Origin: Eledone cirrhosa | Lineage: Eukaryota | Length of the DNA stretch: 64,000 nucleotides | Assembly: GCA_964016885.1 (NCBI GenBank) | Contig: OZ024741.1 | Location: 312,294,001-312,358,000 of the forward strand | Direction of reading: 5' to 3' | In this document: positions 1-62,532 of the stretch, piece by piece | How the letters are laid out: each line of letters starts with the position of its first letter | Numbering within the stretch: position 1 is the first letter of the stretch | Notes under the pieces: model-generated | Databases searched by the model: none | What the model was told of the DNA's origin: nothing | What the model saw: only the letters and a program-made list of their open reading frames with translations | Made by a program: the position numbers and the translations under genes

Positions 1-413
1 AGAGACTTTTATTTCCAGGTACCTTATAAACATGACTTTCCGTATTTATTACTGTTATGAGATATTGTTTTTTTGGGGGGTACCACTTCTCTGTTTTTAG
101 CCTAAGAAAATATCTATATGCGTGTGTAAATACTTACTTGCATACATTTATTTTTTTTAATTAATTGAGTTCTTAACACGCAGGATTGATAATGTTTGTG
201 AAAAAACTAATTAACCCACGTGTATATTATTTTACTTTTCTCGTGACTCGTTGTTGTCTCTCTTTTCCGCTTCGTGACGCTATGATACTTCCTCAGTCAA
301 AAGACTGCTGGAATTTCAAATTTGGCGGTCATTCGATGCGTGAAGGGACAACTTAGCGGACACGAAAATTAACTGCGCTAAGGAATTTTTTCTTATATCA
401 AAGTTTAATGGGC

Positions 414-538
414 TTCCACTGACGATTTATAAGTGCCCACCTAAATATATTCTTAGATGAAAATATGTTAGGCTTCTACATAAACTGGAAACATTCTCCC
501 AACTTGTAGAGAACTTATAATGAAACAATTGTTTGGAA
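414..538 (+). ncRNA. Type I hammerhead ribozyme motif in monomer 1 (repeated once per monomer)
   Basis: Stem I TTCCA(414-418)/TGGAA(534-538); core CTGACGA (419-425); stem II T-TTATAAGT(426-434)/ACTTATAA-T(513-521) enclosing two further hairpins; GAAA (522-525); palindromic stem III CAATTG (526-531); GTT triplet with predicted cleavage after 533. The order matches the CUGANGA...GAAA...NUH consensus. Confidence 0.85.
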
Positions 539-1161
539 AGAGAGATATATTTTAACTTTAATTATGTCTCATATAAAATAATACAACTGGCGTTCCACAA
601 AATGCATATAGTTAGCACCCCAAACACTTAAATTAGGTTTATACTAACGTATAACCTAATGTTTGTTGAGTGAGATGGTTACCAGTCGGAGTTTAGCTTA
701 AAGCTATCTCTGTTATTGTATTAAATATTTTACTTTTGATTTGACCAGTGACTTTTATTTCAAGGTACCTTATAAACATGACTTTCCGTATTTATTACTG
801 TTATGAGATATTGTTTGTTTTTTTTGGGTATCACTTCTCTGTTTTTAGCCTAAGATAATATCTATATGCGTGTGTAAATACTTACATGCATACATTTATT
901 TTTTTAAATTAATTGAGTTCTTAACACGCAGGATTGATAATGTTTGTGAAAAAACTAATTAACCCACGTGTATATTATTTTACTTTTCTCGTGACTCGTG
1001 GTTGTCTCTCTTTTCCGCTTCGTGACGCTATGATACTTCCTCAGTCAAAAGACTGCTGGAATTTCAAATTTGGCGGTCATTCGATGCGTGAAGGGACAAC
1101 TTAGCGGAAATGAAAATTAACTGCGCTAAGGAATTTTTTCTTATAGCAAAGTTTAATGGGC

Positions 1162-28200: not shown

Positions 28201-29145
28201 ATTTTAACTTTAATTATGTCTCATATAAAATAATACAACTGGCTTTCCACAAAATACATATAGTTAGCACCCGAAACACTTAAATTGGGTTTATACTAAC
28301 GTATAACCTAATTTTTGTTGAGTGAGATGGTTACCAGTCGGAGTTTAGCTTAAAGCTATCTCTGTTATCGTATTAAATATTTTACTCATGATTTGGCCAG
28401 AGACTTTTATTTCCAGGTACCTTATAAACACGACTTTCCGTATTTATTACTGTTATGAGATATTGTTTGTTTTTTGGGGTATCACTTCTCTGTTTTTAGC
28501 TTAAGAAAATATCTATATGCGTGTGTAAATACTTACATGCATACATTTATTTTTTTAAGTTAATTGAGTTCATAACACGCAGGACTGATAATGTTTGTGA
28601 AAAAACTAATTAACCCACGTGTATTTTATTTTACTTTTCTCGTGACCCGTGGTTGTCTCTCTTTTCCGCTTCGTGACGCTATGATACTTCCTCAGTCAAA
28701 AGACTGCTGGAATTTCAAATTTGGCGGTCATTCGATGCGTAAAGGGACAACTTAGCGGACACGAAAATTAACTGCGCTAACGAATGTTTTCTTGTATCAA
28801 AGTTTAATCGGCATCCACTGACGACTTATAAGTGTCCACCTAAATATATTCTTACATGAAAATATGTTAGGCTTCTACATAAACTGGAAACATTCTCCCA
28901 ACTTGTAGAAAACTTATAATGAAACAATTGTTTGGAAAGAGAGATATATTTTAACTTTAATTATGTCTCATATAAAATAATACAACTGGCTTTCCACAAA
29001 ATACATATAGTTAGCACCCGAAACACTTAAATTAGGTTTATTCTAACGTATAACCTAATGTTTGTTGAGTAAGATGGTTACCAGTCGGAGTTTAGCTTAA
29101 AGCTATCTCTGTTATTGTATTAAATATTTTACTCTTGATTTGGCC

Positions 29146-32100
29146 AGAGACTTTTATTTCCAGTTACCTTATAAACATGACTTTCCGTATTTATTACTGT
29201 TATGAGATATTGATTGTTTTTTGGGGTATCACTTCTCTGTTTTTAGCCTAAGAAAATATCTATATGCGTGTGTAAATACTTACATGCATACATTTATTTT
29301 TTAAAATTAATTGAGTTCTTAACACGCGGAATTAATAATGGTTTTGAAATAACTAATTAACCCGCGTGTATTAAATATTTTACTCTTAATTTGGCCCGAA
29401 ATTTACATTCCCAAATGCCTTTTAAAGCGTAACATTCCGTATTTATTACAGTTATGAGATGTGGTTTGTTATTTAGGTATCACTTTCTCTGTTTTTAGCC
29501 TAAGAAATTATCTATATTTGTGTGTAATTAATACACGCTTACATTTATTTAAAAAAAATTAATTGAGTTCTTAACACACATGATTGATACTGTTTTTGAA
29601 AAAACTAATTAACCCAGGTGTATACTATTTTACTTTTCTTGTGACTCGTGGTTGTCTCCCTTTTCCGCTTCGTGACGCTATGATACTTCCTCAGTCAAAA
29701 GAGTGCTGGAATTTCAAATTTGGCGGTCATTCGATGCGTGAAGGGACAACTTAGCGGAAACGAAAATTAACAGCGGTACGGAATTTTTTCTTACATCAAA
29801 GTTTAATGGGCTTCCACTGACGATTCATAAGTGCCCACGTAAATATATTCTTACATGAAAATATGTTAGGCTTCTACATAAACTGGAAACATTCTCCCAA
29901 CTTGTAGAAAACTTATAATGAAACAATTGTTTTGAAAGAGAGATATATTTTAACTTTAATTATGTCTCATATAAAATAATACAACTGGCTTTCCACAAAA
30001 TACATATAGTTAGCACCCGAAATACTTAAATTAGGTTGATACTAACGTATAACCTAATGTTTGTTGAGTGAGATGGTTACCAGTCGGAGTTTAGCTTAAA
30101 GCTATCTCTGTTATTGTATTAAATATTTTACTCTTGATTTGGCCAGAGACTTTTATTTCCAGTTACCTTATAAACATGACTTTCCGTATTTATTACTGTT
30201 ATGAGATATTGATTGTTTTTTGGGGTATCACTTCTCTGTTTTTAGCCTAAGAAAATATCTATATGCGTGTGTAAATACTTACATGCATACATTAATTTTT
30301 TCAAGTTAATTGAGTTCTTAACACGCGGAATTAATAATGGTTTTGAAATAACTAATTAACCCGCGTGTAATAAATATTTTACTCTTAATTTGGCCAGAGA
30401 TTTACACTCCTAAATGCCTTTTAAAGCGTAACTTTCCGTATTTATTACAGTTATGAGATGTGGTTTGTTATTTAGGTATCACTTTCTCTGTTCTTAGCCT
30501 AAGAAATTATCTATATTTGTGTGTAATTAATACACGCTTACATTTATTTAAAAAAAATTAATTGAGTTCTTAACACGCGGGATTGATACTGTTTTTGAAA
30601 AAACTAATTAACCCAGGTGTATATTATTTTACTTTTCTTGTGACTCGTGGTTGTCTCCCTTTTCCGCTTCGTGACGCTATGATACTTCCTCAGCCAAAAG
30701 AGTGCTGGAATTTCAAATTTCGCGGTCATTCGATGCGTGAAGGGACAACTTAGCGGACACGAAAATTAACTGCGGTAAGGAATTTTTTCTTTTATCAAAG
30801 TTTAATGGGCTTCCACTGACGATTTATAAGTGCCCACCTAAATATATTCTTACATGAAAATATGTTAGGCTTCTACATAAACTGGAAAGATTCTCCCAAC
30901 TTGTAGAAAACTTATAATGAAACAATTGTTTGGAAAGAGAGATATATTTTAACTTTAATTATGTCTCATATAAAATAATACAACTGGCTTTCCACAAAAT
31001 ACATATAGTTAGCACCCGAAACACTTAAATTAGGTTTATACTAACGTATAACCTAATGTTTGTTGAGTAAGATGGTTACCAGTCGGAGTTTAGCTTAAAG
31101 CTATCTCTGTTATTGTATTAAATATTTTACTCTTGATTTGGCCAGAGACTTTTATTTCCAGGTACCTTATAAACATGACTTTCCGTATTTATTACTGTTA
31201 TGAGATATTGATTGTTTTTTGGGGTATCACTTCTCTGTTTTTAGCCTAAGAAAATATCTATATGCGTGTGTAAATACTTACATGCATACATTTATTTTTT
31301 AAAATTAATTGAGTTCTTAACACGCGGAATTAATAATTGTTTTGAAATAACTAATTAACCCGCGTGTATTAAATATTTTACTCTTAATTTGGCCCGAGAT
31401 TTACATTCCCAAATGCCTTTTAAAGCGTAACATTCCGTATTTATTACAGTTATGAGATGTGGTTTGTTATTTAGGTATCACTTTCTCTGTTTTTAGCCTA
31501 AGAAATTATCTATATTTGTGTGTAATTAATACACGCTTACATTTATTTAAAAAAAATTAATTGAGTTCTTAACACGTATGATTGATACTGTTTTTGAAAA
31601 AACTAATTAACCCAGGTGTATACTATTTTACTTTTCTTGTGACTCGTGGTTGTCTCCCTTTTCCGCTTCGTGACGCTATGATACTTCCTGAGTCAAAAGA
31701 GTGCTGGAATTTCAAATTTGGCGGTCATTCGATGCGTGAAGGGACAACTTAGCGGAAACGAAAATTAACAGCGGTACGGAATTTTTTCTCATATCAAAGT
31801 TTAATGGGCTTCCACTGACGATTCATAAGTGCCCACGTAAATATATTCTTACATGAAAATATGTTAGGCTTCTACATAAACTGGAAACATTCTCCCAACT
31901 TGTAGAAAACTTATAATGAAACAATTGTTTTGAAAGAGAGATATATTTTAACTTTAATTATGTCTCATATAAAATAATACAACTGGCTTTCCACAAAATA
32001 CATATAGTTAGCACCCGAAATACTTAAATTAGGTTGATACTAACGTATAACCTAATGTTTGTTGAGTGAGATGGTTACCAGTCGGAGTTTAGCTTAAAGC

Positions 32101-35100
32101 TATCTCTGTTATTGTATTAAATATTTTACTCTTGATTTGGCCAGAGACTTTTATTTCCAGTTACCTTATAAACATGACTTTCCGTATTTATTACTGTTAT
32201 GAGATATTGATTGTTTTTTGGGGTATCACTTCTCTGTTTTTAGCCTAAGAAAATATCTATATGCGTGTGTAAATACTTACATGCATACATTAATTTTTTC
32301 AAGTTAATTGAGTTCTTAACACGCGGAATTAATAATGGTTTTGAAACAACTAATTAACCCGCGTGTATTAAATATTTTACTCTTAATTTGGCCAAAGATT
32401 TACATTCCCAAATGCCATTTAAAGCGTAACTTTCCGTATTTATTTCAGTTATGAGATGTCGTTTGTTACTTAGGTATCACTTTCTCTGTTTTTAGCCTAA
32501 GAAAATATCTATAATTGTGTGTAATTAATACACGCATACATTTATTTAAAAAAAATTGAGTTCTTAACTCGCAGGATTGATAATTTTTTTGAAAATATAA
32601 TTAACCCACGTGTATATTATTTTACTTTTCTCGTGACTAGTGGTTGTCTCCCTTTTCCGCTTCGTGACGCTATGGTACTTGCTCAGTCAAAAGAGTGCTG
32701 GAATTTCAAATTTGGCGGTCATTCGATGCGTGAAGGGACAACTTAGCGGACACCAAAATTAACTGCGGTAAGGAATTTTTTCTTATATCAAAGTTTAATG
32801 GTCTTCCAATGACGATTTATAAGTGACCACCTAAATATATTCTTACATGGAAATATGTTAGGCTTCTACATAAACTGGAAACATTCTCCCAACTTGTAGA
32901 AAACTTATAATGAAACATTGTTTGGAAAGGGAGATATATTTTAACTTTAATTATGTCTCATATAAAATAATACAACTGGCTTTCCACAAAATACATATAG
33001 TTAGCACCCGAAACACTTAAATTAGGTTTATACTAACGTATAACCTAATGTTTGTTGAGTGAGATGGTTACCAGTCGGAGTTTAACATAAAGCTATCTCT
33101 GTTATTGTATTAAATATTTTACTCTTGATTTGGCCAGAGACTTTTATTTCCAGGTACCTTATAAACATGACTTTCCGTATTTATTACTGTTATGAGATAT
33201 TGTTTGTTTTTTGGGGTATCACTTCTCTGTTTTTAGCCTAAGAAAATATCTATATGCGTGTGTAAATACTTACATGCATACATTTATTTTTTTTAATTAA
33301 TTGAGTTCTTAACACGCGGAATTAATAATGGTTTTGAAATAACTAATTAACCCGCGTTTATTAAATATTTTACTCTTAATTTGGCCAGAGATTTACATTC
33401 CCAAATGCCATTTAAAGCGTAACTTTCCGTATTTATTTCAGTTAAGAGATGTCGTTTGTTACTTAGGTATCACTTTCTCTGTTTTTAGCCTAAGAAAATA
33501 TCTATATATGTGTGTAATTAATACACGCATACATTTATTTAAAAAAAATTGAGTTCTTAACTCGCTGGATTGATAATGTTTTTGAAAATATAATTAACCC
33601 ACGTGTATATTATTTTACTTTTCCCGTGACTAGTGGTTGTCTCCCTTTTCCGCTTCGTGACGCTATGATACTTGCTCAGTCAAAAGAGTGCTGGAATTTC
33701 AAATTTGGCGGTCATTCGATGCGTGAAGGGACAGCTTAGCGGACACCAAAATTAACTGCGGTAAGGAATTTGTTCTTATATCAAAGTTTAATGGGCTTCC
33801 ACTGACGATTTATAAGTACCCACCTAAATATATTCTTACATGAAAATATTTTAGGCTTCTACATATACTGGAAACATTCTCCCAACTTGCAGAAAACTTA
33901 TAATGAAACAATTGTTTGGAAAGAGAGATATATTTTAAATTTAATTATGTCTCATATAAAATAATACAACTGGCTTTCCACAAAATACATATAGTTAGCA
34001 GCCCAAACACTTAAATTAGGTTTATACTAACGTATAACCTAATGTTTGTTGAGTGAGATGGTTACCAGTCGGAGTTTAGCTTAAAGCTATCACTGTTATT
34101 GTATTAAATATTTTACTCTTGATTTGGCCAGAGACTTTTATTTCCAGGTACCTTATAAACATGACTTTCCGTATTTATTACTGTTATGAGATATTGTTTG
34201 TTTTTTTGGGTATCACTTCTCTGTTTTTAGCCTAAGAAAATATCTATATGCGTGTGTAAATACTTACATGCATACATTAATTTTTTTAAGTTAATTGAGT
34301 TCTTAACACGCGGAATTAATAATGGTTTTGAAATAACTAATTAACCCGCGTGTAATAAATATTTTACTCTTAATTTGGCCAGAGATTTACATTCCCAAAT
34401 GCCTTTTAAAGCGTAACTTTCCGTATTTATTACAGTTATGAGATGTGGTTTGTTATTTAGGTATCACTTTCTCTGTTCTTAGCCTAAGAAAATATCTATA
34501 TTTGTGGGTAATTAATACACGCATACATTTATTTAAAAAAAATTAATTGAGTTCTTAACACGCATGATTGATAATATTTTTGAAAATCAATTACTCCGGG
34601 TGTATATTATTTTACTTTTCTCGTGACTCGTTGTTGTCTCCCTTTTCCGCTTCGTGACGCTATGATACTTCCTCAGTCAAAAGAGTGCTGGAATTTCAAA
34701 TTTGGCGGTCATTCGATGCGTGAAGGGACAACTTAGCGGACACGAAAATTAACTGAGGTAAGCAATTTTTTCTTTTATCAAAGTTTAATGGGCTTCCACT
34801 GACGATTTATAAGTGCCCACCTAAATATATTCTTACATGAAAATATATTAGGCTTCTACATAAACTGGAAACATTCTCCCAACTTGTTGAAAACTTATAA
34901 TGAAACAATTGTTTGGAAAGAGAGATATATTTTAACTTTAATTATGTCTCATATAAAATAATAAACTGGCTTTCCACAAAATACATATAGTTAGCACCCG
35001 AAACACTTAAATTAGGTTTATACTAACGTATAACCTAATGTTTGTCGAGTGAGATGGTTACCAGTCGGAGTTTAGCTTAAAGCTATCTCTGTTATAGTAT

Positions 35101-37085
35101 TAAATATTTTACTCTTGATTTGGCCAGAGACTTTTATTTCCGGGTACCTTATAAACATGACTTTCCGTATTTATTACTGTTATGAGATATTGTTTGTTTT
35201 TTGGGGTATCACTTCTCTGTTTTTAGCCTGAGAAAATATGTATATGCGTGTGTAAATACTTACATGCATACATTTATTTTTTTAAATTAATTGAGTTCTT
35301 AACACGCGGAATTAATAATGGTTTTGAAATAACTAATTAACCCGCGTTTATTAAATATTTTACTCTTAATTTGGCCAGAGATTTACATTCCCAAATGCCT
35401 TTTAAAGCGTACCTTTATTACAGTTATGAGATGTGGTTTGTTATTTAGGTATCACTTTCTCTGTTTTTAGCCTAAGAAATTATCTATATTTGTTTCGTAA
35501 TTAATACACGCTTACATTTATTTAAAAAAAATTAATTGAGTTCTTAACACGCAGGATTGATAATGTTTTTGAAAATCAATTACTCCGGGTGTATATTATT
35601 TTACTTTTCTCGTGACTCGTGGTTGTCTCCCTTTTCCGCTTCGTGACGCTATGATACTTCCTCAGTCAAAAGAGTGCTGGAATTTCAAATTTGGCGGTCA
35701 TTCGATGCGTGAAGGGACAACTTAGCGGACACGAAAATTAACTGCGGTAAGGAATTTTTTCTTTTATCAAAGTTTAATGGGCTTCCACTGACGATTTATA
35801 AGTGCCCACCTAAATATATTCTTACATGAAAATATGTTAGGCTTCTACATAAACTGGAAACATTCTCCCAACTTGTTGAAAACTTATAATGAAACAATTG
35901 TTTGGAAAGAGAGATATATTTTAACATTAATTATGTCTCATATAAAATAATACAACTGGTTTTCCACAAAATACATATAGTTAGCACTCAAACACTTAAA
36001 TTAGGTTTATACTAATATATAACCTAATGTTTGTTGAGTGAGATGGTTACCAGTCGGAGTTTAGCTTAAAGCTATCTCTGTTATTGTATTAAATATATTA
36101 TTCTTGATTTGGCCAGAGACTTTTATTTCCAGGTACCTTATAAACATGACTTTCCGTATTTATTACTGTTATGAGATATTGTTTGTTTTTTGGGTATCAC
36201 TTCTCTGTTTTTAGCCTAAGAAAATATCTATATGCGTGTGTAAATACTTACATGCATACATTTATTTTTTTTATTTAATTGAGTTCTTAACACGCGGAAT
36301 TAATAATGGTTTTGAAATAACTAATTAACCCGCGTGTATTAAATATTTTGCTCTTTATTTGGCCAGAGATTTACATTCCCAAATGCCTTTTAAAGCGTAA
36401 CTTTCCGTATTTATTACAGTTATGAGATGTGGTTTGTTATTTAGGTATCACTTTCTCTGTTTTTAGCCTAAGAAAATATCTATATTTGTGTGTAATTAAT
36501 ACACGCATACATTTATTTAAAAAATATTAATTGAGTTCTTAACACGCATGATTGATAATGTTTTTGAAAAAACTAATTAACCCACGTGTATATTATTTTA
36601 CTTTTCTCGTGACTCGTGGTTGTCTCCCTTTTCCGCTTCGTGATGCTATGATACTTCCTCAGTCAAAAGTCTGCTGGAATTTCAAATTTGGCGGTCATTC
36701 GATGCGTGAAGGGACAACTTAGCGGACACGAAAATTAACTGCGGTAAGGAATTTTTTCTTATATCAAAGTTTAATGGGCTTCCACTGACGATTTATAAGT
36801 GCCCACCTAAATATATTCTTACATGAAAATATGTTAGGCTTCTACATAAACTGGAAACATTCTCCCAACTTGTAGAAAACTTATAATGAAACAATTGTTT
36901 GGAAAGAGAGATATATTTTAACTTTAATTATATCTCATATAAAATAATACAACTGGCTTTCCACAAAATACATATAGTTAGCACCCGAAACACTTAAATT
37001 AGGTTTATACTAACGTATAACCTAATGTTTGTTGAGTGAGATGGATACCAGTCGGAGTTTAGCTTAAAGTTATCTGTTATTGTAT

Positions 37086-37437: not shown

Positions 37438-37510
37438 GGTCAGGTAGCTCAGTCGGTAGAGTAGCGGACCGGGAATCCGAAGGTCGTGTGTTCGATTCCC
37501 ACCCTGATTA
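37438..37510 (+). pseudogene. tRNA-like sequence (nominal anticodon GGG), probably a pseudogene or element-borne tRNA head
   Basis: Cloverleaf: acceptor GGTCAGG/CCTGATT, D arm GCTC/GAGT, anticodon arm GCGGA/TCCGA with loop CCGGGAA, T arm GTGTG/CCCAC with TTCGATT loop; TTTT follows at 37512. It has stem mismatches and C instead of U33. Confidence 0.75.
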
Positions 37511-37623
37511 CTTTTCCTATCTGCACTTCTTCCTATTCATTATTATTTATTTAACTTATTTGTTGATAAATATTTTTAATATTAATTTAATATCCTTGCA
37601 TTGCCTGGAAAAAAAGTGGATTA

Positions 37624-39519: not shown

Positions 39520-39565
39520 TCTATATATATATATATATATATATATATAGATAGATATATAGATA

Positions 39566-39930
39566 TATTAATAAGAGGAATTCCAACTTTGTCTGATTTA
39601 CTCGTTTTATTTACAATCCTTTAAAATTTATAATGGTATTATAATGAAATAGTATGATAGAATATTAAATTCATGCTTTCGCAATCTTCCGGTTCATAAT
39701 ATGTGGTGACAGTCAAGTTTGCAATTTTCAACTGACAGTTGAAAATTGCAAAGTTGATTGTCACCACATAATATGAACCTGAAGATTGCGAAAGCATGAA
39801 AGTACTTGTTCAATTAACACTTAGAATTTAATATTCTATCATACTATTTCATTATAATACCATTATAAATTTTAAAGGATTGTAAATAAAACGAGTAAAT
39901 CAGAAAAAGTTGGAATTCCTCTTATTAATA
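39566..39930. repeat. ~365-bp near-perfect palindrome, likely an inverted Penelope-like pseudo-LTR
   Basis: The arms mirror around ...TTTTCAACTG-A-CAGTTGAAAA (centre 39735); the right arm has an extra 26 bp and contains a hammerhead motif. Confidence 0.9.
39774..39812 (+). ncRNA. Minimal type I hammerhead motif
   Basis: TGAAC-CTGAAGA-T-TGC GAAA GCA-T-GAAA-GTAC-TT-GTTCA: stem I TGAAC/GTTCA, GAAA-capped stem II, palindromic stem III. Confidence 0.8.
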
Positions 39931-39960
39931 TAATCTTCTATACACAATCATACACACCCG

Positions 39961-41969: not shown

Positions 41970-42720
41970 CTAGTGCCTACAAAAAATTATCCGCTCGATT
42001 TTGCCTTTTAGTAGCGTCTTATTATACGGTAGAATATTGAGTAACTCCATATTGCATAGTCCGCATTGGGACATCCCGTTCGTGTAGGCTTTTGTATTCG
42101 ATAATTTCAACCAGCTACTTTTATATCCTTGATTATTGTCCTTAAGTTGCCAGATTTTATTGACCAACGTCGGTTTATAACTGGGCCTCCAGTCCTCTAT
42201 GGAGTGCCGATGCACATACCATCGTTTTTAAAGGCACTAGTCGTAGAACCTATGTAATACCACATATGGTTGCCAGACTTAATAGTGCACGGATATACTA
42301 TACCGGAATCCAGGCATCTATTCTGTAGTGGGCCTTTATCCGGCAGGTGGCAGTTACATTTGGAGACATTCCTACGTGATGGTTCCTCGTTATAGTTCGA
42401 TTTGTGGATTGAGATGGACTTGGATGCTAGTCTGTTTGTGTTTTGTTGTGACATATATCGACGGACAGCCGGTTGTGATGCTGTTATGCGGTTGTGTTTT
42501 GTATTTGATGCTGTGGTGATGGTTTGTGGACTACATTTTTTAGATATTCTCCTGGAGTTTTTTATGTGTGATTCGTTGTTGATGTCCTCGAGTGTACCTT
42601 CAAGGGTTTGCCGGTATTTTTTGTGTAGTTCACGGCGTATAAAGCTGTTGTAGGTGTCTAGGCTCATGGTATATACGTTCGATATTTTGTCCGCTTTAAC
42701 TATAATTCAGTCAGTATTGC
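41970..42720 (-). mobile_element. Penelope-like element remnant: N-terminal region plus frameshifted GIY-YIG endonuclease
   Basis: IIVKADKISNVYTMS...; CNCHLPDKGPLQNRC...GIVYPC...YYIGSTTSAFK; next frame ...AYTNGMSQCGLCNME...CRH. These are PLE-type GIY-YIG motifs. Confidence 0.85.
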
Positions 42721-43521
42721 CTAGTTTTTTTTCAAAAGTGCATTGATGTCGTTCTGCAGTTTGTTGTGACCAATGCATTCTTTTAAAACTTAATTCCACT
42801 TATTCTCTTCATGAGGTCGAGTTCAAAAGCGTCAAGCTGGGGTTACTTGGTGGGTCTTTGCAAGGTTTAAATCCGCATTACTCTGTAGTGTTTCCGTCAA
42901 TATCAGTTGTGTATCCCTTGCCTTAATGATATGCTTTCCATCGGATTCGATGGTTAAATCATTGGTGCGCTGCACCATGCCGAGTGTATAATACCTGTTT
43001 GTAGGTATAGGCAACATTTTAGTGACATGCCTATGTTGTGCTTTTCCATGTTAATGCCTGGCGTTTAAATTCTTACTCAACTTGGTTGGAGCTAATCATA
43101 TTAGTTAACGAGGTATCGTTTAAGGCAATCCAAGTAGAGATTTTGAGTACTCTGTATCGGGGATAGTTGAACGTTCGGAGTTGTTTCACTCAACAAGACA
43201 TTCACTTAGTTGTGGTGTTCGGGTGGCCGATTTAAGACAGTTCCCATGTAAAAAGTTCCTGGACTATTAATAATAAATGAGTGAAGAATAAAATGGGTCT
43301 GCTGTACGATAGGATTTATTCGAAGTATTAACAAATTTTGCATTAGTCCAGTGTGTCTAAAAACTGCTATTCGCATTATGGTGCAGCACCCGATTTTAAT
43401 TACAATTGAAACCCGACCAAATATATATTTCAAAACATATATATATCAGGATAGAAACAGTTTGAAACTCGTTAGACCATTACTCTACAGAGTACGCGAT
43501 ACTTGGGGTAGTAGGGTATGA

Positions 43522-44043
43522 CTCCATTATAATGATTCAGTATCCGAGGACTTAGCTCTAGCCTTTTCAATAACTTGTTCGAGAATCTGTAGGTTAAACT
43601 ACCCTACTCTCACCAACCGTAGAAGCAACTGTAACTGCCGTTACCCTAATGCATGCCCACTAAATGGACACTGCCGGACACCCAACATAGTCTATAGGTG
43701 CACGGTTAAAACTGCTTCGAATACCAGCTCCTATATCGGGTCTACCTCTATCCTTTTTAAGGTACGCTATAACGCGCCCTCTTTTTCCTTCCGAGACCCT
43801 AACAACAGATGTTCGACATCTCTAGCTAGGCTCATTAAAAATCTTAAATTAAACAACATTGAACACTCACCAACATGGGATATCTTAGCTAGGGCCCAAC
43901 CGTTCAATGGACGAAGAAAATATTGTGATCACTGTATTACCGAAGCATATTACAAAACTCTATCACGACCTCTACCGATTAACGATAGAACGGAGGTAAC
44001 TATTAGCTGTCAACATCGAAGGGCTAATTCCTTCGCCAACTGA
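43522..44043 (+). mobile_element. Penelope-like GIY-YIG endonuclease, open frame lacking a start codon (absent from the ORF track)
   Basis: Manual translation from 43621: RSNCNCRYPNACPLNGHCRTPNIVYRCTVKTASNTSSYIGSTSILFKVRYN...WDILARAQPFNGRRKYCDHCITEAYY...NDRTEVTISCQHRRANSFAN*. Confidence 0.88.
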
Positions 44044-44440
44044 ATATTTGACCCAACATAGTCATCTAGCCCCATTTTTACTGGTAGCTAATAAGTTAAA
44101 TAGCTATAACTAACTTAGATAATTATAAGTTACCTCCCCTACATTGTCTCTCAATTAAAAAAATAAAAACATTAGCACTTAACTATAAACTACACACAAT
44201 TTCTAATCTCTCGAGGAGTTAGTTCCCCTGAAACCACCCTCTAATCAGTAAGGTAAAAATGTCCATTGGCGGCCATCTTGTTACCCATAGGCAGATCTAA
44301 CACAATGCAGCCTCGACAGTAGAATACTGCTTGATTATGGCAGACAATTGATACATCCAGGACACCATAGTGAAATACCAATATATGGAACATTTCATTA
44401 TGTAACATTCTTTCCTTATTTTAATTTATATTCCTTTGAA

Positions 44441-45357: not shown

Positions 45358-45525
45358 CCACAGTAAGTAAGGTAGTCAATACATAGCAGAGTAGTTTCAT
45401 ACGGGAGAAATCATCAGGAAACCTCTGATAATTTCTCCCGAATGAAACAGTTCAAGTTCTGTAGAAGGCATTTCTATATTAAGTATTTTTACTCTGCTAT
45501 GTATTGACTAATTTACTTACTGTGG
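45358..45525. repeat. Asymmetric palindrome from a dispersed pLTR-like family, containing hammerhead core motifs
   Basis: Outer arms 45358-45393/45490-45525; inner arms 45394-45417/45425-45448 (CTGATRATTTCTCCCGWATGAAAC). Related copies at ~45215-45297, 56937-57027 and ~62413-62500. Confidence 0.8.
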
Positions 45526-46956: not shown

Positions 46957-49900
46957 TTTTCTTTATTAACCACAAGGGTTTACATAAAGTAGACATTAAG
47001 GACAGTACAGGACAATAGAGGACGGTACAAATGGGCATTTCTGCGTGTAAAAAAACAGAGGATGTAATAAAATAACAAAGAAAAATTCCCCAATAGGGGG
47101 GAGACTTCCGAGGGACATTTGTGGAGAAAGCCCATTAAAAGACCACAGTGACATACTCAGAGAAGGCCCATTCATTCGGGCCATACTTGCTTCTCTCACC
47201 CATCTTTCAACAAAATGCTGGAAAGAGAGCACTTCCCTCTCTACCCTGATTTTCCTTTTCAAATGAAATTTGAAAAAGTTAATCAGGGCATCACCGAAGA
47301 GGTAAGTGCTCGTCTTCAGCCCTTTCAAACGTGTCCACTATACTATCTCTTTCGCCATGGCCACCAGACAGATAAAAACTGCCTGCCCTTCCCGGCTAAA
47401 GGAAGAGGGCGGGGCAATCCTCACGATGGACTCAGCTGATAGCTGGATCCGTCCTACACGTGACAGTAGGTGTTCGACATAAACCCACAAGTCAGCAATG
47501 CTCGGACACTGGACGAGTGCGTGCAGGACGGTTTCGTCGCCCTGTGCGCATCTCGGAAATGCCCGGCTGACGGCACCTCCATGTCTGTAGAGTTTATCTC
47601 GAAATGGCAAAGCTCCCCGGTAGCACTGCCAGGCCAGGGATTTCTGGAAGTTGTCCATAGGCCCCGGCCCGAAAGTCCTTCCGAAGAGATTGGCTAGTTG
47701 ATTTTCGTCGAAGCCCAGAATTTCTCCAAGTACGTCGTCGCTCTTCCCCTCCACTAATCCTCTATATAACGCCAAGGTGGAGTTTCCACCGATCACATTG
47801 CCCGATTGGTCGAGGGCTGTGAGCGCCTGAAGACATTCCAGTCTCCAAGCGCTCCCTCTCGGTCTTCGCTTGACCCAGGACTGCAGCTCCGTCAAGGAGA
47901 CGAGCTGGGGAAAAACGTGTCTAGCAAACGGCGACCACACCTGATCACCGTCGAGGAAGAGGTGGAGATGTCGTAGCCTGAGCGCGTGTCTGCGCATCAT
48001 CAGCCACGGCATGCCCAGCCCTCCACGTAGCGGGTGTTGACAGCAGAGGACCGCCTGACCATCGGAGCGCGTCCCTTCCACAAGAAGCGAAAGAGCAAAC
48101 GCTCCAGCGCAGTCAGGCGGGGCTTAGGACAAGATACGACGGTCAGGCAGTAGTAGATGACGGACGCGATGTATGCGTCAGCCACCTCCGCTCGACCTTT
48201 CAGGGAGAGCTTCCTCTCGGCCCATTTCTGGGTGAGAGCAGCCACCCTGCTCGTCACCTCGTCCCAGTTTTTGTCCGTCTGGAGGTCTGGACCGAACCAG
48301 ACCCCTAGTAATTTAACCGGTCCGTCCGTCCAACGCCCGACGACGCTGTTGGACGGCATGGATCTGCTTCTCCAGGTGCCGAGCTGCAGGCCCACTGACT
48401 TTCCCTGGTTGATCATCGCTCCTGTCACCGCTTCGTATTCTCTTAGTGTAGTGCCGATCGCCTCGATGTGTTTGGCGTTCGACTCCACTACAGGGACATC
48501 GTCCGCATATGCTGACACGGATCTTCGGCATCCTAGTTCGCGTGGAACCCCCCTCAACGTCTCCAGTTTGTGTAGTAATGGCTCAAGAGTCAATACGTAC
48601 AATAGGGACGGGAGCGGACATCCTTGGCGGACCGAGCGCATGATGTTGAACGGTTCCGAAAGGTGACCGTTCACTCTCACTACAGAGCAGATGTCGCTGT
48701 GCATGGCAGCGATCCAGCCTCTGAAGACGGGCCCAAAGCCAGCCGCCCTCAGGACTGCCGCTAGGTAACGATGGTCGACCCTATCGAAGGCTTTCGACTG
48801 ATCTAAATTGATCAAAGACCCACCCGTGCCAGGTCCCAAGCTACCCTCTCTACGATGTATCGCATAAGGTAGAGGTTGTCGTGGATGGATCTGTCGGGAA
48901 TGGCGCATGTCTGTGCCTCTCCCACCAGATCACCAACGACAAGCGCCAACCTCTTTGCTAGCACCTTGGCCAAAATCTTGAACTCTGTGTTTAGCAGAGT
49001 TATGGGCCTAAAATTATCTATGTTATCCCCCTTGTTCGGATCCTTTCTCAGCAGCGCCACCGCTCCTCGGCTCACAGAGCTGGGAATTCTCCCGTTCTGT
49101 TGCCAGTTGCAGTAGACGTCCGCCAAGAGGCCTCCGAACAAGTCTGGCATTTGTACGTAAAGTTCATAGGACAGACCATCCAAACCAGGCGATTTACCTC
49201 TTGTGCAGCCAGTCATTGCCTCCCGTACTTCAGCGGTTGTTATCGGCTTTTCGCAACACTCCGCCTCAGTGGCCGAAAGCCGCGACAGTCCGTCGAGGTA
49301 GACACTAAAGTCCATCCCTCGACCCGGCCCGCCATTGCCTCCGAACAGCTGAGCGAAATTGCGCTGAAAAGCTTCACACATTTGCCCGGGATCGAGTAGC
49401 ATAAGCCCGTCGTAGTCTACCAAAGACCGGATCGTGGCTTTGTTGCCACGACGCGCCTCCGCCACTCGGGCCCATTGAACGGCTTTCGTCCCGTCGTGTC
49501 TGAGAGCACACACCCTAGCACTGACAACGCAGCCTTCGTGCTTTGCATTGAAGAATTGGTCAAGGGCCTATTTCGCCGCAAGTACGTCGGTCGCGCTGTC
49601 TTTGCTAAGCGCCTCGTCTAATTTTCTAACTAATTCTCCCTCTGCTCTATTTTTCTCTATTGCTAAAGCCTTACTAAACCTAATGGACTCTATTCTAATT
49701 GCTCTTTTCAGAGCAAACCACCACTTGTTGTTGACGATGGCCCCCGTCAACGCCCGCTTAACTAGTTCGCTAATCCGGTCTCTGTAGGCCTTGCGCGCTG
49801 ATAAGGACGCGTGTAGCTTCCAGTAGCCAGGTCCTCGTCTATGAAGCCTATCTAAGTCAAGCACACAGATCACGAATTTGTGGTCCGTGTAGCTGACTAT

Positions 49901-52792
49901 CTTGAATTGTGGACAGCCTATGCTAGACCTATTTATTTCCCTACACAATACTCTATCTAGATATGATCTGGATGACCCTATGCGATTTGTCCAAGTCCAC
50001 ATTGGTACATTCGGGAAATCCATTCGGTACCTGTCAGACAGTTCAAAACGCCTGAGCATGTTGGTGAGACACTTGCACCCTCCTTCCCTATCCACTAATC
50101 CCACACAATCCCATCTTGCATCTAAGATCCCGTTCCAGTCGCCCACTAACACTAAAGTGCGGGACGTTCCAAGAAAGGTCTCCAGACGTCGGAAGAAATC
50201 AGGCCGCCCTGCTCCTGTCGGAGCATAGATGGCCACTAACGTCAAAGCTTGCCCGTCTCCGCTGGTCACGTCCAGCACCACCAACTTACCTTCTGGGTCC
50301 AGGGAGATGGCCCGTATGGCAAGATCCAAACCTCTCCGAAAAAGCACAGCAACTCCTCCCCCGATCCCGGACGGCTGGGAGATGCATACACATCGTAGCC
50401 GACTAAGATCGGTGCGAAGGCCCGTGCTTCGGAGTTTCTGGTCTCGCTGATGGCCACTACCTCTATGTTTAGTGACCCGAGGTCGTTGAACAGGTGGCCC
50501 TGCTTCCATGACGACCCCAAGCCACGCGCATTTATGCTGCCTATTCTGAGTGAGGTTATGTTGAAAAGGAGCGGAAAAGATGGGAAAGACCACTTACCTT
50601 AATTCTCGTAGGGGAACGACGGTTTTTCCATCCCTTTCACTGCTTGTGGCCTCCTCAGGAAGGATGTCCTTATAAATTCTCCTGGAGAGTGCTTGTCGGA
50701 TGTCTCCGATGTCTTTGGGGAATTTTTGTTTTAGTGTCATGTACGTTTTCTGTGTGATGCGAGTGATTTGTATGTGTGGAGGTGGTGTGAATTTTTGGGT
50801 TGTTGTGTTGTCATTTTCTGTGATGCTGGTGTTGTGTTTGATGTAGTGTAATAATTGGTTGTTGTTCAAACTTAATGCTGTGTAGTGTGTATCGTTTTGG
50901 TTGTTTTGTTTTGTTTGCGTTTGTTTCTGTTTCGCATTTTGGTGACTTTTGTGGTGTAGGTGATGGTGGTGTTGGGGTTAATGATGGTGATGGTGTTGGT
51001 GTTTGGGTTGATGGGGTTGGTGATGCTGGTGTGGATGGTGGCATATCTGTCCTAACTCTTTTGTTTGTTAATTTATTTGTTTCCCTCTGTATTTTGTTTT
51101 TGGAGGGGGAAGGAAGAGAATTTTTTCTTATTTGGTTTATTATTTTTTTTCCTGATACCGTTTCCAACTCCTCGTCGTCACAATCTGTCTCCAGTTGTGA
51201 TAGGCCGGGGAGTGGAAAATCCTCCACGGGCGTTAGTTTTGGTTGTGGCGTGGTGGATGGTGTAGGCGCTGGTGCTAGTTCTGAAGCGTTGGGTGGTGGT
51301 GGTGTTGGTTTTGCTGGTGGTGGTGGTGTTGGTTTGCTACTGTTGCTGGGGTTGTTGCTGTTATAGTTGCTTCTGTTGTTGCTGCTACAATTGTTGCTGC
51401 CATCTCTGCTACTGGTGGTGTTGATGGTTGTGTCACTGGGGTGGGTAGGAGAGGTGGCCTCAACCTTTTAGCCTGAGGGCAGAAAGCCCTTAGGTGGGTT
51501 CCTTCACCACAAACGACACACCTAGGCCTTCTGCCCTCGACAATTACGGTGAGGTGCCGTCAGTGAGGTCTATTACCTCTGGGATCTCCTCAATGCTTTT
51601 TTGGTCCGCTTGGATCAGGAGCTCCATCCCAGATCCGGACCAGTTCTCCTGCTTTTCTTTTGCTATTGCTATTATCTTTGTGTTGGCTTCGATGCCGGCG
51701 AGGACGGCCGCTATTAGCCAGGGAATTTCGATGGCCGGTGGAACGTGGGTCACCCTGATCTTTACGAGTCTCTGGCCACAATAGCTTGGGACGAGTGTGA
51801 AGTCGTCACTTCTTAATGGGGTCATGGAGTGTTCTCTAGTATCCTCTGGTGTTTCAAAGAACACGTCCACGGTTCCATACTTCTGCCCACGTCTGATGTG
51901 GGTTTTTCTTGCCCACACATGTTCCAAAGCTTTTTGGATTTGGGACTCGGATGCCCGTTCCACTCGGGGCGATTTTACATTTATTGTTCGATACGACACG
52001 GTGCATAGGCGCCGATGCTCCATTTTATTAGGTGGGGGGTGAGGCTGACCCTGTGACCATCTTTCTTTACCATTTGTCTGGCATTTTCTAATTCCTCCTG
52101 AGTTACCGTAAATGCTTCTCACTGTTTTGCTACTCTGGCAAAACTCAAGGTGGTTTTTTTAATGTCATTGTTGTTGTTGTTGCTATCGTTATTTTTGTTA
52201 CTATTAATTTTAGTTTCAGTTGTGGTGGTGGTGACGTCAGTGAAGTTCGGTTTGGGAGAGTCCATTTTGGTTGAAAATATTTCGACATCACGAGTTGATT
52301 TATTTTTTCCTTTTGTTTCTGTTGTCGCGTCGGTGGTGGTGGTGGTGGTGGTGGGGGGGGGGGGGGGGTTGTCGCGGTGGTGGTGGTGGTGACGGCTTTA
52401 ACACCTACAGTCATTGGTAATGGCGGGAAATGAATGTCTGCCTGAGACAAATTTAAAATATTGCTAGTGCTTAAATTGTTTGTGTTGGCAGACGTATAAT
52501 CATTTACAATGGTGGTGTCGGTGTGAGGTGTTAATTTGTGAGAAAGGCTTTCAGCAGCTTGGTGCAGTGGTGAATTAGCCATTTTTTTCTCAAAGAAATT
52601 TTTTGATAATCATAAAAGTTTAAATTTTGGGCACAAGGCCCCAATCTTTTTGCGTGTCCTTTTCGGAAAACAATGTATGTGCGCTTATATATAGTTAACA
52701 ATAAAAAATTTCCATAAATGGCAATTTTTAACAAACGGAAATAACAAACCTTTGCGGAGCTCACGATGATACGATTTACTACGTAGGTCGCC
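46956..52792 (-). mobile_element. Apparently full-length (~5.8 kb) Tx1/L1-clade LINE, disrupted by frameshifts and stops
   Basis: ORF1 pieces (52582 to ~50594) include the zinc knuckle CVVCGEGTHLRAFC. ORF2 pieces carry APE motifs (AIYAP, VGDWN, SYLDR, TDHK), RT motifs (KSPGLDG, FRPITLLN, DQSKAFDRV, RQGCP, YADD) and C-terminal ETVLHALVQC. AATAAA at the 3' end; (AAT)n on both sides. Confidence 0.95.
46996..50593 (-). pseudogene. ORF2 (AP endonuclease-reverse transcriptase) of the Tx1-type LINE, split over at least five ORFs
   Basis: ORFs 49568..50593, 48812..49513, 48000..48908, 47338..48081 and 46996..47328 give colinear domains. Confidence 0.93.
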
Positions 52793-53152: not shown

Positions 53153-56100
53153 TGCCAGACAAGCGAGCCGGCGGGAAATGAAGGTGAGGAGGTCCTGAGA
53201 ACGGAGGAACCACCCGAAGCAGACAATGATCTGAATACTGAGATAAATAATACCTGGAACAGAGATACGGCCACTGAGGAGATGAATGCTGACGGGCTAG
53301 GACAAGATTCGGTTGACATCCTAAATTTAGTGGTAGATGAGTTGAACAACAATGATAGTGGGAGACCTATGAACCTAAGATTTGTAGACAGGAAAAAGTT
53401 AAAAGAAACAACAGCTAAGGTAAACAAAGTCATCCCATACCTTGAGGCGAGGAGTCTTCACCAGTGCAACAATATCCTCAAAGCAACAGCAAATACGGTG
53501 AGGAAACTACTTGGTATAAAAGCGAGAGGAAACAACAGACAAGAAAGAGCAGAGCCGTGGTGGAAGAAGCGACTGAGTGGGCAAATCGGGGAAATGAGAA
53601 ATGACATAGGAAAGCTTGAGTCACTACTGAATGGGACACTAAAAAACATAGGCACTAAAAATAGAATGGAAATAAAATACAAAACTAGGAGTAAAAACTA
53701 AATATTATCATAGAGGAATTGAAGCAACGCATTGTAGCAAAGAGTGCCAAAATCAGGCGATACGAGAACAGAGTCAGTCAGTATAAACAGAACCGCATGT
53801 TCGACAACAACCAGAAGATGCTGTTTGGACAGCTTGAGGGGAAAGAAAGAGGCAACGACTTGATCCCTGGGGCGGAACAAGCTAAAACATTCTGGAGAGG
53901 AATATGGGAGCAGGATGTTAGACACAATGCCCAGGCAGGGTGGATTGAGACAGTACAGAGGGAGATCGGTGAGCAGGCACAGCAACAGACTGATTTGAGT
54001 ATCACAGTTGAAACTCTTAAGGGGCAAGCCAAAAAACTAACCAACTGGAAATCACCAGGCCCAGATGGTGTGCAGGGGTATTGGATTAAACATTTAACAT
54101 CCCTCCACCCGAAGCTGACGGCCATGTTCAATGACTGCTTGGTGTCGGGTGAGGTGCCAGAGTGGTTGACAAAAGGTACCACAGTTCTGATAATGAAAGA
54201 CCGAATCAAGGGTAATGATGTTACCAACTATAGACCTATCACATGTCTGCCCGTAATGTGGAAACTGTTGACGAGCATTGTGTCTGAGGAAATCTACCAT
54301 CACCTCCACACAAACAACTTGTTGCCGGACGAACAGAAAGGATGCCGAAAGAAGTCACGTGGTACAAAGGACCAGTTGCTTATTGATAAGATGGTAATGG
54401 GGAATTGCAGGAGGAGACACACTGATCTTGCCATGGGATGGATAGACTACAGAAAGGCATTTGACATGGTGCCTCATTCCTGGATCACCAAAAGCCTGGA
54501 GATCTTCAGGGTGGCAGATAACATCAGACAGTTGCTGGGCAGGAGTATGGGGTCCTGGGAGACAGAGTTGACATCAACTGGAGTATCCTTGGGAAGCGTG
54601 AAGATCAAGAGAGGTATCTTCCAGGGAGATAGCCTGTCCCCTCTGTTGTTTGTCCTTGCCCTGATGCCCTTGACCATTATGCTGCGAAACGTGAGAGCAG
54701 GATACAAGTTGGGAAGGGGAGAGCTTACCATCAATCACCTCCTCTTCATGGACGATCTTAAGCTCTTCGGGAAAAGTGAGAAGGAGTTGGATGTGCTTGT
54801 TGACACTGTCCGTATTTTCAGCAGTGATATATGTATGCAGTTTGGTATTGGAAAATGTGGAGTCATTGTGATGAGGAGGGGTAGGTTGAGCAGAAGTAAC
54901 GGGATCCAGATACCAACAGGTGAGATGATAAAGGAAATTGACTCTGAGGAAGGATACAAGTATTTGGACGTTCTGGAGGCTGATGGCATAAAGAACAAAA
55001 AAATGAAGGAATTGTTAAGAACTGAATACATTCGGAGAGTAAGGAGCGTATTGAAGTCACATCTGAACAGCAGAAATGCCATAAGCGCAGTAAATTCCCG
55101 AGCTGTGTCTATTATTAGGTACAGTGCGGGAATTCTGAGATGGAATGTTGCTGAACAAAAAGAAATGGATAGGAAGACTAGGAAGCTATTGACTATCTAC
55201 AACATGTTCCACAAGAGGAGTGATGTCGATAGACTCTACCTAAGGAGATCTGAGGGTGGAAGAGGTCTTATCAGCATAGAGGACTGTGTTCAGATGGAGA
55301 AAAACAACCTATACAAATACGTGACCTATAGTAAGGAGCCAATGCTCAGAGCTGTACTGAAGGAGGGGACAGTAGGCCAGGGGATACCCAAGGAGGAAAT
55401 AACATCAAGGAGGAAGAGCAGCCTTAAGGGAAAATCCCTTCATAGTACCTTCTTTGAGAAAACTGAATTTAGAGATCCACAGACATGGAACTGGTTGAGA
55501 AGAGGAGACCTCAAAAAGGCTACAGAAGGAATGCTAATGGCTGCGCAGGAGCAGGCCCTCAAAACGAAGTGGTTGAAGCACCATATCTACAAGGAGGAGG
55601 CTAGCCCACTGTGCAGGATCTGTGGAGAGAGAGAGGAGACTGTGGCTCACATTGTGTCCGAGTGTAAAGACCTAGCCCAGACCCACTATAAGGGCTGGAG
55701 ACACGATGTGATGGGCAGGGTGATCCACTGGCACCTGTGCAAAGTAAACAATCTACCACATTCTGAGAAATGGTATGAGCATAGGCCAGAGGCGGTGATG
55801 GAGAACAGTCAGGTGAAGGTGCTGTGGGATTTTAGGATACAGACGGACAAAAAACTGGAACACAATAGACCTGACCTGGTGGTTGTGGACAAAGAAAAAA
55901 GATCGTGCCTGATTGTGGATGTGGCCTGCCCGTTCGACACGAGAGTGCAAGAGAAGGAGAGGGAGAAAATTAACCGATACCAGGACCTAAAGTGGGAGGT
56001 GAAAAGGATTTGGAACTGCCATGAAGTCAAAGTGATCCCGATTGTCATAGGCGCACTGGGGACTATCTCCAAAGGTTTCCAGGGATGGTTAAAGAAAATC

Positions 56101-56258
56101 GGCCCCTTCACGCTTTTTGGAACGCTTCAAAAGGCATGCTTGCTTGGAACGGCAAGAACCCTCCGATACGTCCTGAATATCTGAGGCTGCAGGTAGTGGC
56201 TTGATATTCAATCCAACGGACTTTCCAGTTAACCAACATCAATGACTGAGATTCAAGG
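53152..56258 (+). mobile_element. R4/Dong-like non-LTR retrotransposon (RT plus restriction-like endonuclease), 5'-truncated, one frameshift near 53695
   Basis: RT motifs (KSPGPDG, YRPITCL, IDYRKAFD, GIFQGDSLSP, FMDD), CCHC finger CRIC...HIVSEC, RHD and RPD...D...K REL motif; (TAA)n on both sides. Confidence 0.93.
53719..56184 (+). CDS. Reverse transcriptase/REL endonuclease frame (821 aa, C-terminal part of the element ORF)
   Basis: Uninterrupted ORF with all RT and REL motifs; the upstream part lies in frame 53282..53701. Confidence 0.9.
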   Translation: MKQRIVAKSAKIRRYENRVSQYKQNRMFDNNQKMLFGQLEGKERGNDLIPGAEQAKTFWRGIWEQDVRHNAQAGWIETVQREIGEQAQQQTDLSITVETLKGQAKKLTNWKSPGPDGVQGYWIKHLTSLHPKLTAMFNDCLVSGEVPEWLTKGTTVLIMKDRIKGNDVTNYRPITCLPVMWKLLTSIVSEEIYHHLHTNNLLPDEQKGCRKKSRGTKDQLLIDKMVMGNCRRRHTDLAMGWIDYRKAFDMVPHSWITKSLEIFRVADNIRQLLGRSMGSWETELTSTGVSLGSVKIKRGIFQGDSLSPLLFVLALMPLTIMLRNVRAGYKLGRGELTINHLLFMDDLKLFGKSEKELDVLVDTVRIFSSDICMQFGIGKCGVIVMRRGRLSRSNGIQIPTGEMIKEIDSEEGYKYLDVLEADGIKNKKMKELLRTEYIRRVRSVLKSHLNSRNAISAVNSRAVSIIRYSAGILRWNVAEQKEMDRKTRKLLTIYNMFHKRSDVDRLYLRRSEGGRGLISIEDCVQMEKNNLYKYVTYSKEPMLRAVLKEGTVGQGIPKEEITSRRKSSLKGKSLHSTFFEKTEFRDPQTWNWLRRGDLKKATEGMLMAAQEQALKTKWLKHHIYKEEASPLCRICGEREETVAHIVSECKDLAQTHYKGWRHDVMGRVIHWHLCKVNNLPHSEKWYEHRPEAVMENSQVKVLWDFRIQTDKKLEHNRPDLVVVDKEKRSCLIVDVACPFDTRVQEKEREKINRYQDLKWEVKRIWNCHEVKVIPIVIGALGTISKGFQGWLKKIGPFTLFGTLQKACLLGTARTLRYVLNI

Positions 56259-56807: not shown

Positions 56808-56838
<31 letters not shown>

Positions 56839-57039
56839 ATAAGGTATATTTTTAGGCTCAACATGTCAAAATGTACGCTGGAATATACGGCAACTATATA
56901 TATATATATATATAAGTTTATACCTGGTTCAATTGGAGGTTGCCACAGTAATTAAGTTAGTCAATACATAGCAGAGTGTAAATATTTAATATAGAAATGT
57001 TTCCTACAGGTCTTGAACTGTTTCATTGATATTGTGCAA

Positions 57040-57216: not shown

Positions 57217-57379
57217 TTATTATAATATCTACGTTAAACAGAAATGATTGTGATGGGCTGCTAGAGTTATGGTAAGTGGTGTACAACAAGTGTTACTCAG
57301 CCAGTTTCACTGTTTAATCGTCAGTGGTAAAGGTTCCTATTTCATATTCGGCGGACAAGTCGTCCCCTGGTTTTGGACA

Positions 57380-62366: not shown

Positions 62367-62500
62367 ATATATATGCATTTAGAAATATTTGAACTATTTC
62401 ATTCAAATGTAATCATCAGGAAAGCCGTATCCAGATGAACAACCTTGGATGAAACATTTCTAGTCTTGTAGAAGCGATTTCTATATTAAACATCATATTT

Positions 62501-62532
<32 letters not shown>

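Follow-up and report, generated by a model that had tools for sequence, protein, structure and literature searches.

A type I hammerhead motif with a branched 78-nt insert in helix II, in a likely Penelope-derived element of Eledone cirrhosa

Is a hammerhead whose helix II is capped by 78 nt of branched sequence a genuine ribozyme motif, to what kind of element does it belong, and what might the insert do? These questions were raised by a 64,000-nucleotide stretch of the Eledone cirrhosa genome (the window, contig OZ024741.1), in which an initial annotation made from the letters had described an unusual hammerhead at 426..521 with a U·U opposition at 10.1/11.1 and a large insert.

The hammerhead motif and its U·U mismatch

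The motif noted earlier, with its U·U and its 78-nt insert, was confirmed. Positions 414–538 form a complete type I hammerhead motif with an open-ended stem I, and the U426·U521 mismatch, the 8-bp helix II and the insert can all be read directly from the letters, as laid out here with the array to which the motif belongs.

1–37088, plus strand: 747-bp unit repeated in tandem, reaching about 998 bp per unit towards the 3′ end, with 47 hammerhead copies
409–413, plus strand: UGGGC, complementary to 435–439; candidate pseudoknot or inhibitory hairpin
414–418, plus strand: stem I 5′ strand TTCCA, 4–5 bp with TGGAA at 534–538
419–425, plus strand: catalytic box CTGACGA (CUGACGA, C3–A9), from the sequence
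426–434, plus strand: U10.1 (T426) and helix II 5′ strand TTATAAGT (427–434), from sequence, fold and alignment
435–512, plus strand: the 78-nt insert, from the sequence
435–439, plus strand: GCCCA linker of the three-way junction, from fold and alignment
440–472, plus strand: hairpin 1, variable in sequence with pairing kept (double changes in 5 of 13 pairs)
474–511, plus strand: hairpin 2, with a near-invariant outer stem UUCUACA/UGUAGAR (97–100% identity)
513–521, plus strand: helix II 3′ strand ACTTATAA (513–520) and U11.1 (T521), from sequence and alignment
522–533, plus strand: GAAA box (522–525), palindromic stem III ACAAUUGU and U17 (T533), from the sequence
534–728, plus strand: stem I 3′ strand and the 195-nt segment up to the fixed 3′ end of dispersed copies

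The CUGANGA and GAAA boxes, the A15.1-U16.1 pair and a non-G at position 17 are all present, and the core is intact in 46 of the 47 copies in the window, with the U·U in 43, all eight helix II pairs in 40 and all seven hairpin 2 pairs in 27. Stem I measures 4–5 bp, helix II 8 bp and stem III either 2 bp or, as a dimer, 8 bp, and the three hammerhead helices are paired in 96–100% of alignment cells. Stem III comes from the palindrome ACAATTGT at 525–532, which is retained in relatives as ACGATCGT and ACGGCCGT via double changes, and stem I shows a U-A to C-G change in subfamily A2. The cut is predicted between 533 and 534, at a GUU triplet. Both hairpins that had been proposed for the insert (440–472 and 474–511) are found in the MFE structure of 405–545. 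The G10.1-C11.1 pair, common though not universal in hammerheads, is absent from 414–538, where U426·U521 stands instead. We rejected a reading of U426 as the extra base of Penelope-like element (PLE) hammerheads, as the U·U opposite U521 remains even so.

The initial annotation had inferred a lineage-specific architecture; comparison gave no support for a U·U that is bound to the insert and restricted to one lineage. Among 62 copies, the 10.1/11.1 state was U·U in 47, G-C in 13, G·U in one and a deletion in one, and in a midpoint-rooted FastTree tree the U·U fell into two separate clades, which implies at least two switches. Sister subfamilies carry the same insert with a canonical G10.1-C11.1, and one G-C subfamily gave 260 exact matches (control, 0). 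Short-loop T..T motifs, moreover, matched the genome 9,419 times (control, 154), and the same U·U lies at the base of helix II in the axolotl HHR_Amex2, a natural ribozyme that cleaves and whose helix III is 2 bp with a tetraloop (Cervera & de la Peña 2020, PMC7229834, accessible parts). From the G-C sisters, the short-loop motifs and HHR_Amex2, we conclude that the U·U has precedent, changes readily and does not depend on the insert. The accessible description of the published min-HHR descriptor already permits extra N10/N11 bases, and a Hydra row in what is legible of the PMC4209133 supplement resembles the U·U, uncertainly so (figure letters are partly lost). A branched or 60–120-nt helix II domain in a PLE or retrozyme hammerhead was not found in the open-access literature consulted. 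Sister subfamilies that share the insert and differ in U·U versus G-C provide a natural series for testing the role of each feature. One same-insert subfamily with the canonical pair, represented by L306, L316, L318, L319 and L321, has a GUA triplet.

A tandem array and a dispersed family with Penelope-like traits

The array stops at the fixed 3′ end of the family, followed by (TA)n, and extends about 27 kb upstream of the window with 33 further units. No ORF of ≥120 aa and, by tblastn, no PLE protein match was found in 1–37088. The array is made of non-coding units in tandem, with one type I hammerhead per unit, as in non-LTR retrozymes, and the element lacks the reverse transcriptase (RT) plus GIY-YIG ORF of an autonomous PLE. 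The intact-core pattern fails in 18 of the 33 upstream units, in repeating blocks (L029–L027), and the core-breaking variants have spread through higher-order repeats. Because so many upstream units are core-broken and these variants were amplified, we conclude that the array is not being preserved in intact form for the sake of catalysis; most likely, this 64-kb array grew later through DNA-level amplification, regardless of catalysis. The units of about 998 bp (29116–36591) contain an internal 252-bp duplication missing from the 747-bp units, and forms with and without it are both present among dispersed copies.

A genome-wide search with a 17-nt anchor found at least 3,258 copies of the family (control, 0), and the family and its variants are present in three contig sets (from one sample, of unknown library type). 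Dispersed copies share a 3′ end about 195 nt past the predicted cut; in 30 copies chosen by a 3′ anchor and counted by eye, (TA)n came next in 23 and a further unit in 3, and 4 were interrupted. The copies are 5′-truncated and form partial tandems and inverted pairs with (TA)n flanks. The family shows the traits of a non-autonomous PLE: its 3′ end is fixed, its copies are truncated at the 5′ end and occur in partial tandems and in inverted form, and (TA)n is targeted; the fixed 3′ end with truncation, the partial tandems and the inverted pairs are given as PLE hallmarks in the accessible parts of bioRxiv 2021.04.23.441226. The element is likely a derivative of a Penelope-like retrotransposon.

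No autonomous partner with the same hammerhead was found among 83 loci (L186 and L187 at a coarser level). PLE-protein matches occurred at 14 of the 83, and in none does the match lie on the same strand and start about 215 nt downstream, the arrangement in autonomous elements; blastn against ten UTR stretches of autonomous elements gave no significant match. L024, with a PLE RT fragment upstream on the same strand, was rejected as a partner because unrelated sequence and (TA)n separate this fragment from the element. A recently active PLE family at L211:2187-4328, with many copies 95–99% identical and an intact 714-aa ORF preceded, about 215 nt upstream, by a hammerhead whose helix II is of medium length, is a candidate source of RT in trans.

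In its overall plan, the element resembles non-LTR retrozymes of metazoans, for example the axolotl HHR_Amex2, which are non-coding tandem repeats with a type I hammerhead in each. Its unit is 680–1,000 bp, in contrast to about 170–400 nt in metazoan non-LTR retrozymes (as far as the accessible descriptions go), and retrozyme families of up to 972 bp appear in the available part of bioRxiv 10.64898/2026.07.22.740005. Where HHR_Amex2 is described with a small loop, the window motif has an 8-bp helix II with the 78-nt branched insert, and it differs from metazoan retrozymes in its 4–5 bp stem I, the lack of a classical loop 1–loop 2 contact and a circular RNA that is predicted. The reported cleavage of HHR_Amex2 is 22% in 1 h for the monomer and higher for the dimer (PMC7229834, accessible parts).

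The 5′ ends of shortened copies pile up at the start of the 534–728 segment. Among 96 anchor-picked copies, 63 span the hammerhead (core intact in 54), 10 start inside it and 23 start at or within about 45 nt past the cut, a modest excess of 23 versus 10 with p about 0.02 after allowing for ATAT microhomologies. Junctions with (TA)n were tallied by hand among the matches listed (100 of 343 in a first set, 100 of 176 in a second subfamily group). In the matches listed for the first set, 19 of 26 loci lay at −2..+9 and 10 of the 26 within 2 nt of the cut, 2 lay at −13..−3 and 5 at a TATAA microhomology. The matches listed for the second group placed 27 of 29 junction loci at +1..+9, most of them at +4..+9 and not +1, and the remaining 2 at −5 and −10. 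Pooled, 46 of the junctions among the matches listed fell at −2..+9 versus 4 at −13..−3 (p about 2e-10). Copies beginning at the predicted cut site thus suggest that the ribozyme likely cuts in living cells, and the step would fit cleavage-made 5′ ends in subfamilies with both the U·U and the insert. It concerns the past mobilization of the family, not the array copy in the window. As a cheap genome-only test, the junction step can be repeated in any PLE-rich genome.

Conservation of the insert and a proposed mechanism

Mean pair probabilities were 0.85 for helix II, 0.85 for the base and 0.53 for the upper part of hairpin 1, and 0.92 for hairpin 2. The fold of 427–520 had z = −3.1, with none of 300 shuffles as good; the z of just −1.6 for the whole 405–545 arises because the core and the stem III strand pair with each other in the MFE structure. 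The active monomer fold lies 6.5 kcal/mol above the MFE, and the helix II probability falls to 0.03–0.12 in three wider contexts. Pairing is conserved in relatives: the branched fold (outer stem plus two hairpins) was the MFE structure in 53 of 62 copies versus 2 of 420 shuffles. No region diverges more than hairpin 1, with 61% identity between subfamily representatives and pairing nonetheless kept, and identities are 78–83% in the 3′ flank and 97–100% in the hairpin 2 stem. On the basis of the fold counts and the 61% versus 97–100% identities, we regard hairpin 1 as conserved structure and hairpin 2 as conserved sequence.

Covariation, which had been put forward as a check, gave a divided answer. 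The alignment comprised 41 hand-picked motifs (the window copy plus 28 of 58 and 12 of 13 intact-core A2 motifs) and left out copies with deletions; 91.8% of its cells pair, and double-change cells numbered 98 versus 32 ± 5.5 in shuffles. On the two measures that relatedness inflates least, the alignment was not above shuffles: pairs with a double change numbered 10 versus 8.7 (reached in 76 of 500), and further pair types 27 versus 28.7 (484 of 500). Double changes affected 5 of 13 pairs in hairpin 1 and 2 of 8 in helix II, and in hairpin 2 one sequence only. In this alignment, essentially no covariation was seen for the UGGGC/GCCCA pairing or for hairpin 2 and its inner stem. Taken together, the modeled folds and alignments make the insert look to be under selection, and it is probably dispensable for the chemistry; it may serve folding control or protein docking or be tolerated cargo, with about equal likelihood.

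The UGGGC/GCCCA complement is conserved without compensatory change. In longer contexts it is predicted as a hairpin over the CUGACGA box (0.74–0.83) that displaces helix II, which would suggest an off-switch rather than a pseudoknot. The helix I–II contact of the sCYDV-RPV hammerhead is inhibitory. According to the accessible parts of the two reports, cleavage of that ribozyme is controlled by helix I–II loop contacts (PMC6155905), and stem I–II Watson-Crick pseudoknots occur in about 40% of hammerheads (Perreault et al. 2011, PMC3088659). Unlike those pseudoknotted hammerheads, the partner strand here is the three-way-junction linker past an 8-bp helix II and shows no covariation, and the pseudoknot geometry looks strained. 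A general stem I–II pseudoknot was not seen across all long-insert families, the complement being family-specific, and we treat it as a lead. The Clec2 discontinuous hammerhead also has a big insertion within a hammerhead helix, but it is of type III, with a 150–1,500-nt insertion in helix I, and is domesticated in mRNA.

The genome is rich in long helix II extensions, with about 22,000 pattern matches versus about 1,070 in controls. The long-insert T..T pattern matched 4,568 times versus 65 in the reversed control, which excludes chance for this motif, and a second long-insert pattern matched 17,626 times versus 1,000. The loci sampled belong to many families unrelated in sequence, mostly rod-shaped, with extensions of 45–120 nt, a helix base of U·U, A·A or C·A and a mostly palindromic stem III. 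At L220 (L220:3972-7373) and L225 (L225:506-2588), long-helix-II hammerheads lie, in the pLTRs of autonomous elements, about 215 nt upstream of RT plus GIY-YIG ORFs with a cysteine-rich linker resembling one described for Neptune/Nematis; ORFs of this type are putatively Nematis. The sequence YAGC-N5-10-TAGRY, a motif picked after the alignment was viewed, occurs on the 3′ strand in 9 of the 17 long-insert families examined, where shuffles reach it at a rate of at most 0.045, and in 0 of 86 members of the window's family. When MFE structures were checked for conserved A·G internal loops, the outcome was mostly negative.

The suspicion that standard descriptors could miss such motifs was borne out. 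An Rfam scan of the window motif gave no hammerhead match at E ≤ 1 or E ≤ 10, and miRNA matches in the Rfam scans were discarded, falling as they do on microsatellites. The published min-HHR descriptor, in its accessible form, limits loop 2 to 10 nt and stem II to 7 bp, and the window motif lies beyond it because its loop 2 exceeds 10 nt. The min-HHRs of PLE pLTRs, as far as they are set out in the accessible text (Cervera & de la Peña 2014, PMC4209133), otherwise share with the motif a short helix I, a longer helix II, a palindromic stem III predicted to be dimeric and PLE-type truncation, tandems and inversions, but their helix II is at most 7–8 bp, their loops span a few nucleotides, and G10.1-C11.1 is usually conserved among them; the window element also has no ORF. 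A stem I/II filter was passed by 0 of 242 listed metagenome and viral matches versus 93 of 196 motifs from the genome itself, a scan that serves as a chance control and is uninformative on other animals. The long helix II class implies that short-loop hammerhead censuses heavily undercount in some animals. A bolder proposal, which we advance tentatively, is a large, overlooked class of PLE hammerheads with structured 60–120-nt helix II domains (about 20,000 motifs in this genome, out of range for Rfam and the published descriptor), in which RT would license cleavage via the domain as a switch or docking site and the junction step would be the in vivo footprint of cuts in the retrotransposition template.

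For the window's family, we think it probable that a type I hammerhead in a protein-less, non-autonomous PLE (a non-LTR retrozyme) cuts after U533 as a dimer or with help from a protein, and that the insert is a selected folding-control domain. Tandem units would be transcribed, the palindromic stem III of two copies would form an 8-bp helix (self-duplex −6.4 kcal/mol), and the RNA would be cut at 533/534. This cleavage may be assisted by a PLE protein, as in Anolis, where the accessible parts of PMC11167929 describe cleavage of the PLE hammerhead only with its protein present, no RNA reads starting or ending at the cut site, and insertion in vitro without cleavage. A Penelope-like RT/endonuclease supplied in trans would use this RNA, linear or circular (predicted fold of the circular monomer, z = −5.7, 25 shuffles), as its template from a start about 195 nt downstream of a hammerhead and would insert the copy into (TA)n, often with run-off at the cut 5′ end. 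The GCCCA linker and UGGGC may form a stem I–II pseudoknot or else a competing hairpin by which the monomer is held inactive, and the invariant hairpin 2 stem is perhaps read by a protein.

It is conceivable, though improbable, that the ribozyme has no activity or no importance in vivo and that the step in 5′ ends comes from RT stalling at a folded domain or from junction microhomology. A GUU triplet, a U·U and a stem I of 4–5 bp are weak hammerhead features, all present here, and core-broken array units were amplified; moreover, many second-group junctions among the matches listed, at +4..+9, coincide with the outer edge of stem I, and junctions are drawn to ATAT words at +11 and +30–38. However, in the first set of matches listed, the 10 of 26 junctions at ≤2 nt from the cut lie at a weak stem's inner end, where there is no TA microhomology, and the AT-rich −13..−3 stretch holds 2. 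The intact core in 54 of 63 spanning copies and the preservation of stem III palindromes by double changes also speak for a ribozyme that matters.

Two other readings concern the insert, and we hold each to be possible but doubtful. The insert might mainly dock the Penelope-like RT, or a host protein, and so couple cleavage to RNA capture for retrotransposition. The identity of the hairpin 2 outer stem across subfamilies (97–100%) fits sequence readout, YAGC-N5-10-TAGRY is common to 9 of 17 long-insert families, and the Anolis PLE protein, required for cleavage, is proposed in the accessible text to bind within 172 nt from helix II; against docking, that motif was picked post hoc and is found in 0 of 86 in this family, the test for A·G internal loops mostly failed, and the very abundant PLE-type hammerheads of the genome have short loops only. 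Alternatively, the insert might be tolerated cargo, with any well-paired loop II accepted and selection just for a compact RNA, possibly a circle, and a core that is not misfolded. That hairpin 1 is free to change in sequence while its pairing stays would suit this reading, as would the 45–120-nt helix II extensions of unrelated sequence and mostly rod-like fold in many families and the ease with which PLE-type insertions make inverted repeats, but an invariant hairpin 2 stem and a conserved GCCCA/UGGGC are unexpected under compaction alone.

Other hammerheads and elements in the window

The T/T opening had also been noted at two further places in the window.

39774–39812, plus strand: short hammerhead with U39786·U39797, a 3-bp helix II and a GAAA loop
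45394–45448, both strands: two degenerate short-loop U·U motifs, inverted relative to each other

The T/T at 39786/39797 was found inside the complete short hammerhead of 39774–39812. This hammerhead sits within an almost perfect inverted repeat at 39564–39932, with arms of 109 nt that match at 99% and arms of 65 nt that match at 94%, a structure typical of an inverted truncated insertion. The cross-reference to 45425–45448 was only partly right: the T/T is there, but the motif is a degenerate copy of a short-loop family, whose plus-strand copy reads CTGATAA (G8 to A) and has no proper stem III 3′ strand and whose minus-strand copy ends abruptly after GAAAC. More degenerate copies of this short-loop family lie at 56812–57027 and 62391–62503.

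Two PLE endonuclease fragments in opposite orientations occupy 42030–44073. A tRNA-like sequence at 37438–37511, called by ARAGORN as tRNA-Pro(GGG) with an unusual anticodon, is likely a pseudogene or a SINE head. A broken LINE-like element on the minus strand and an 829-aa RT ORF (RVT_1, E 6e-22) lie at 47338–52609 and 53695–56184, and ORF fragments at 57254–59011 presumably resemble a Helitron/PIF1-type helicase.
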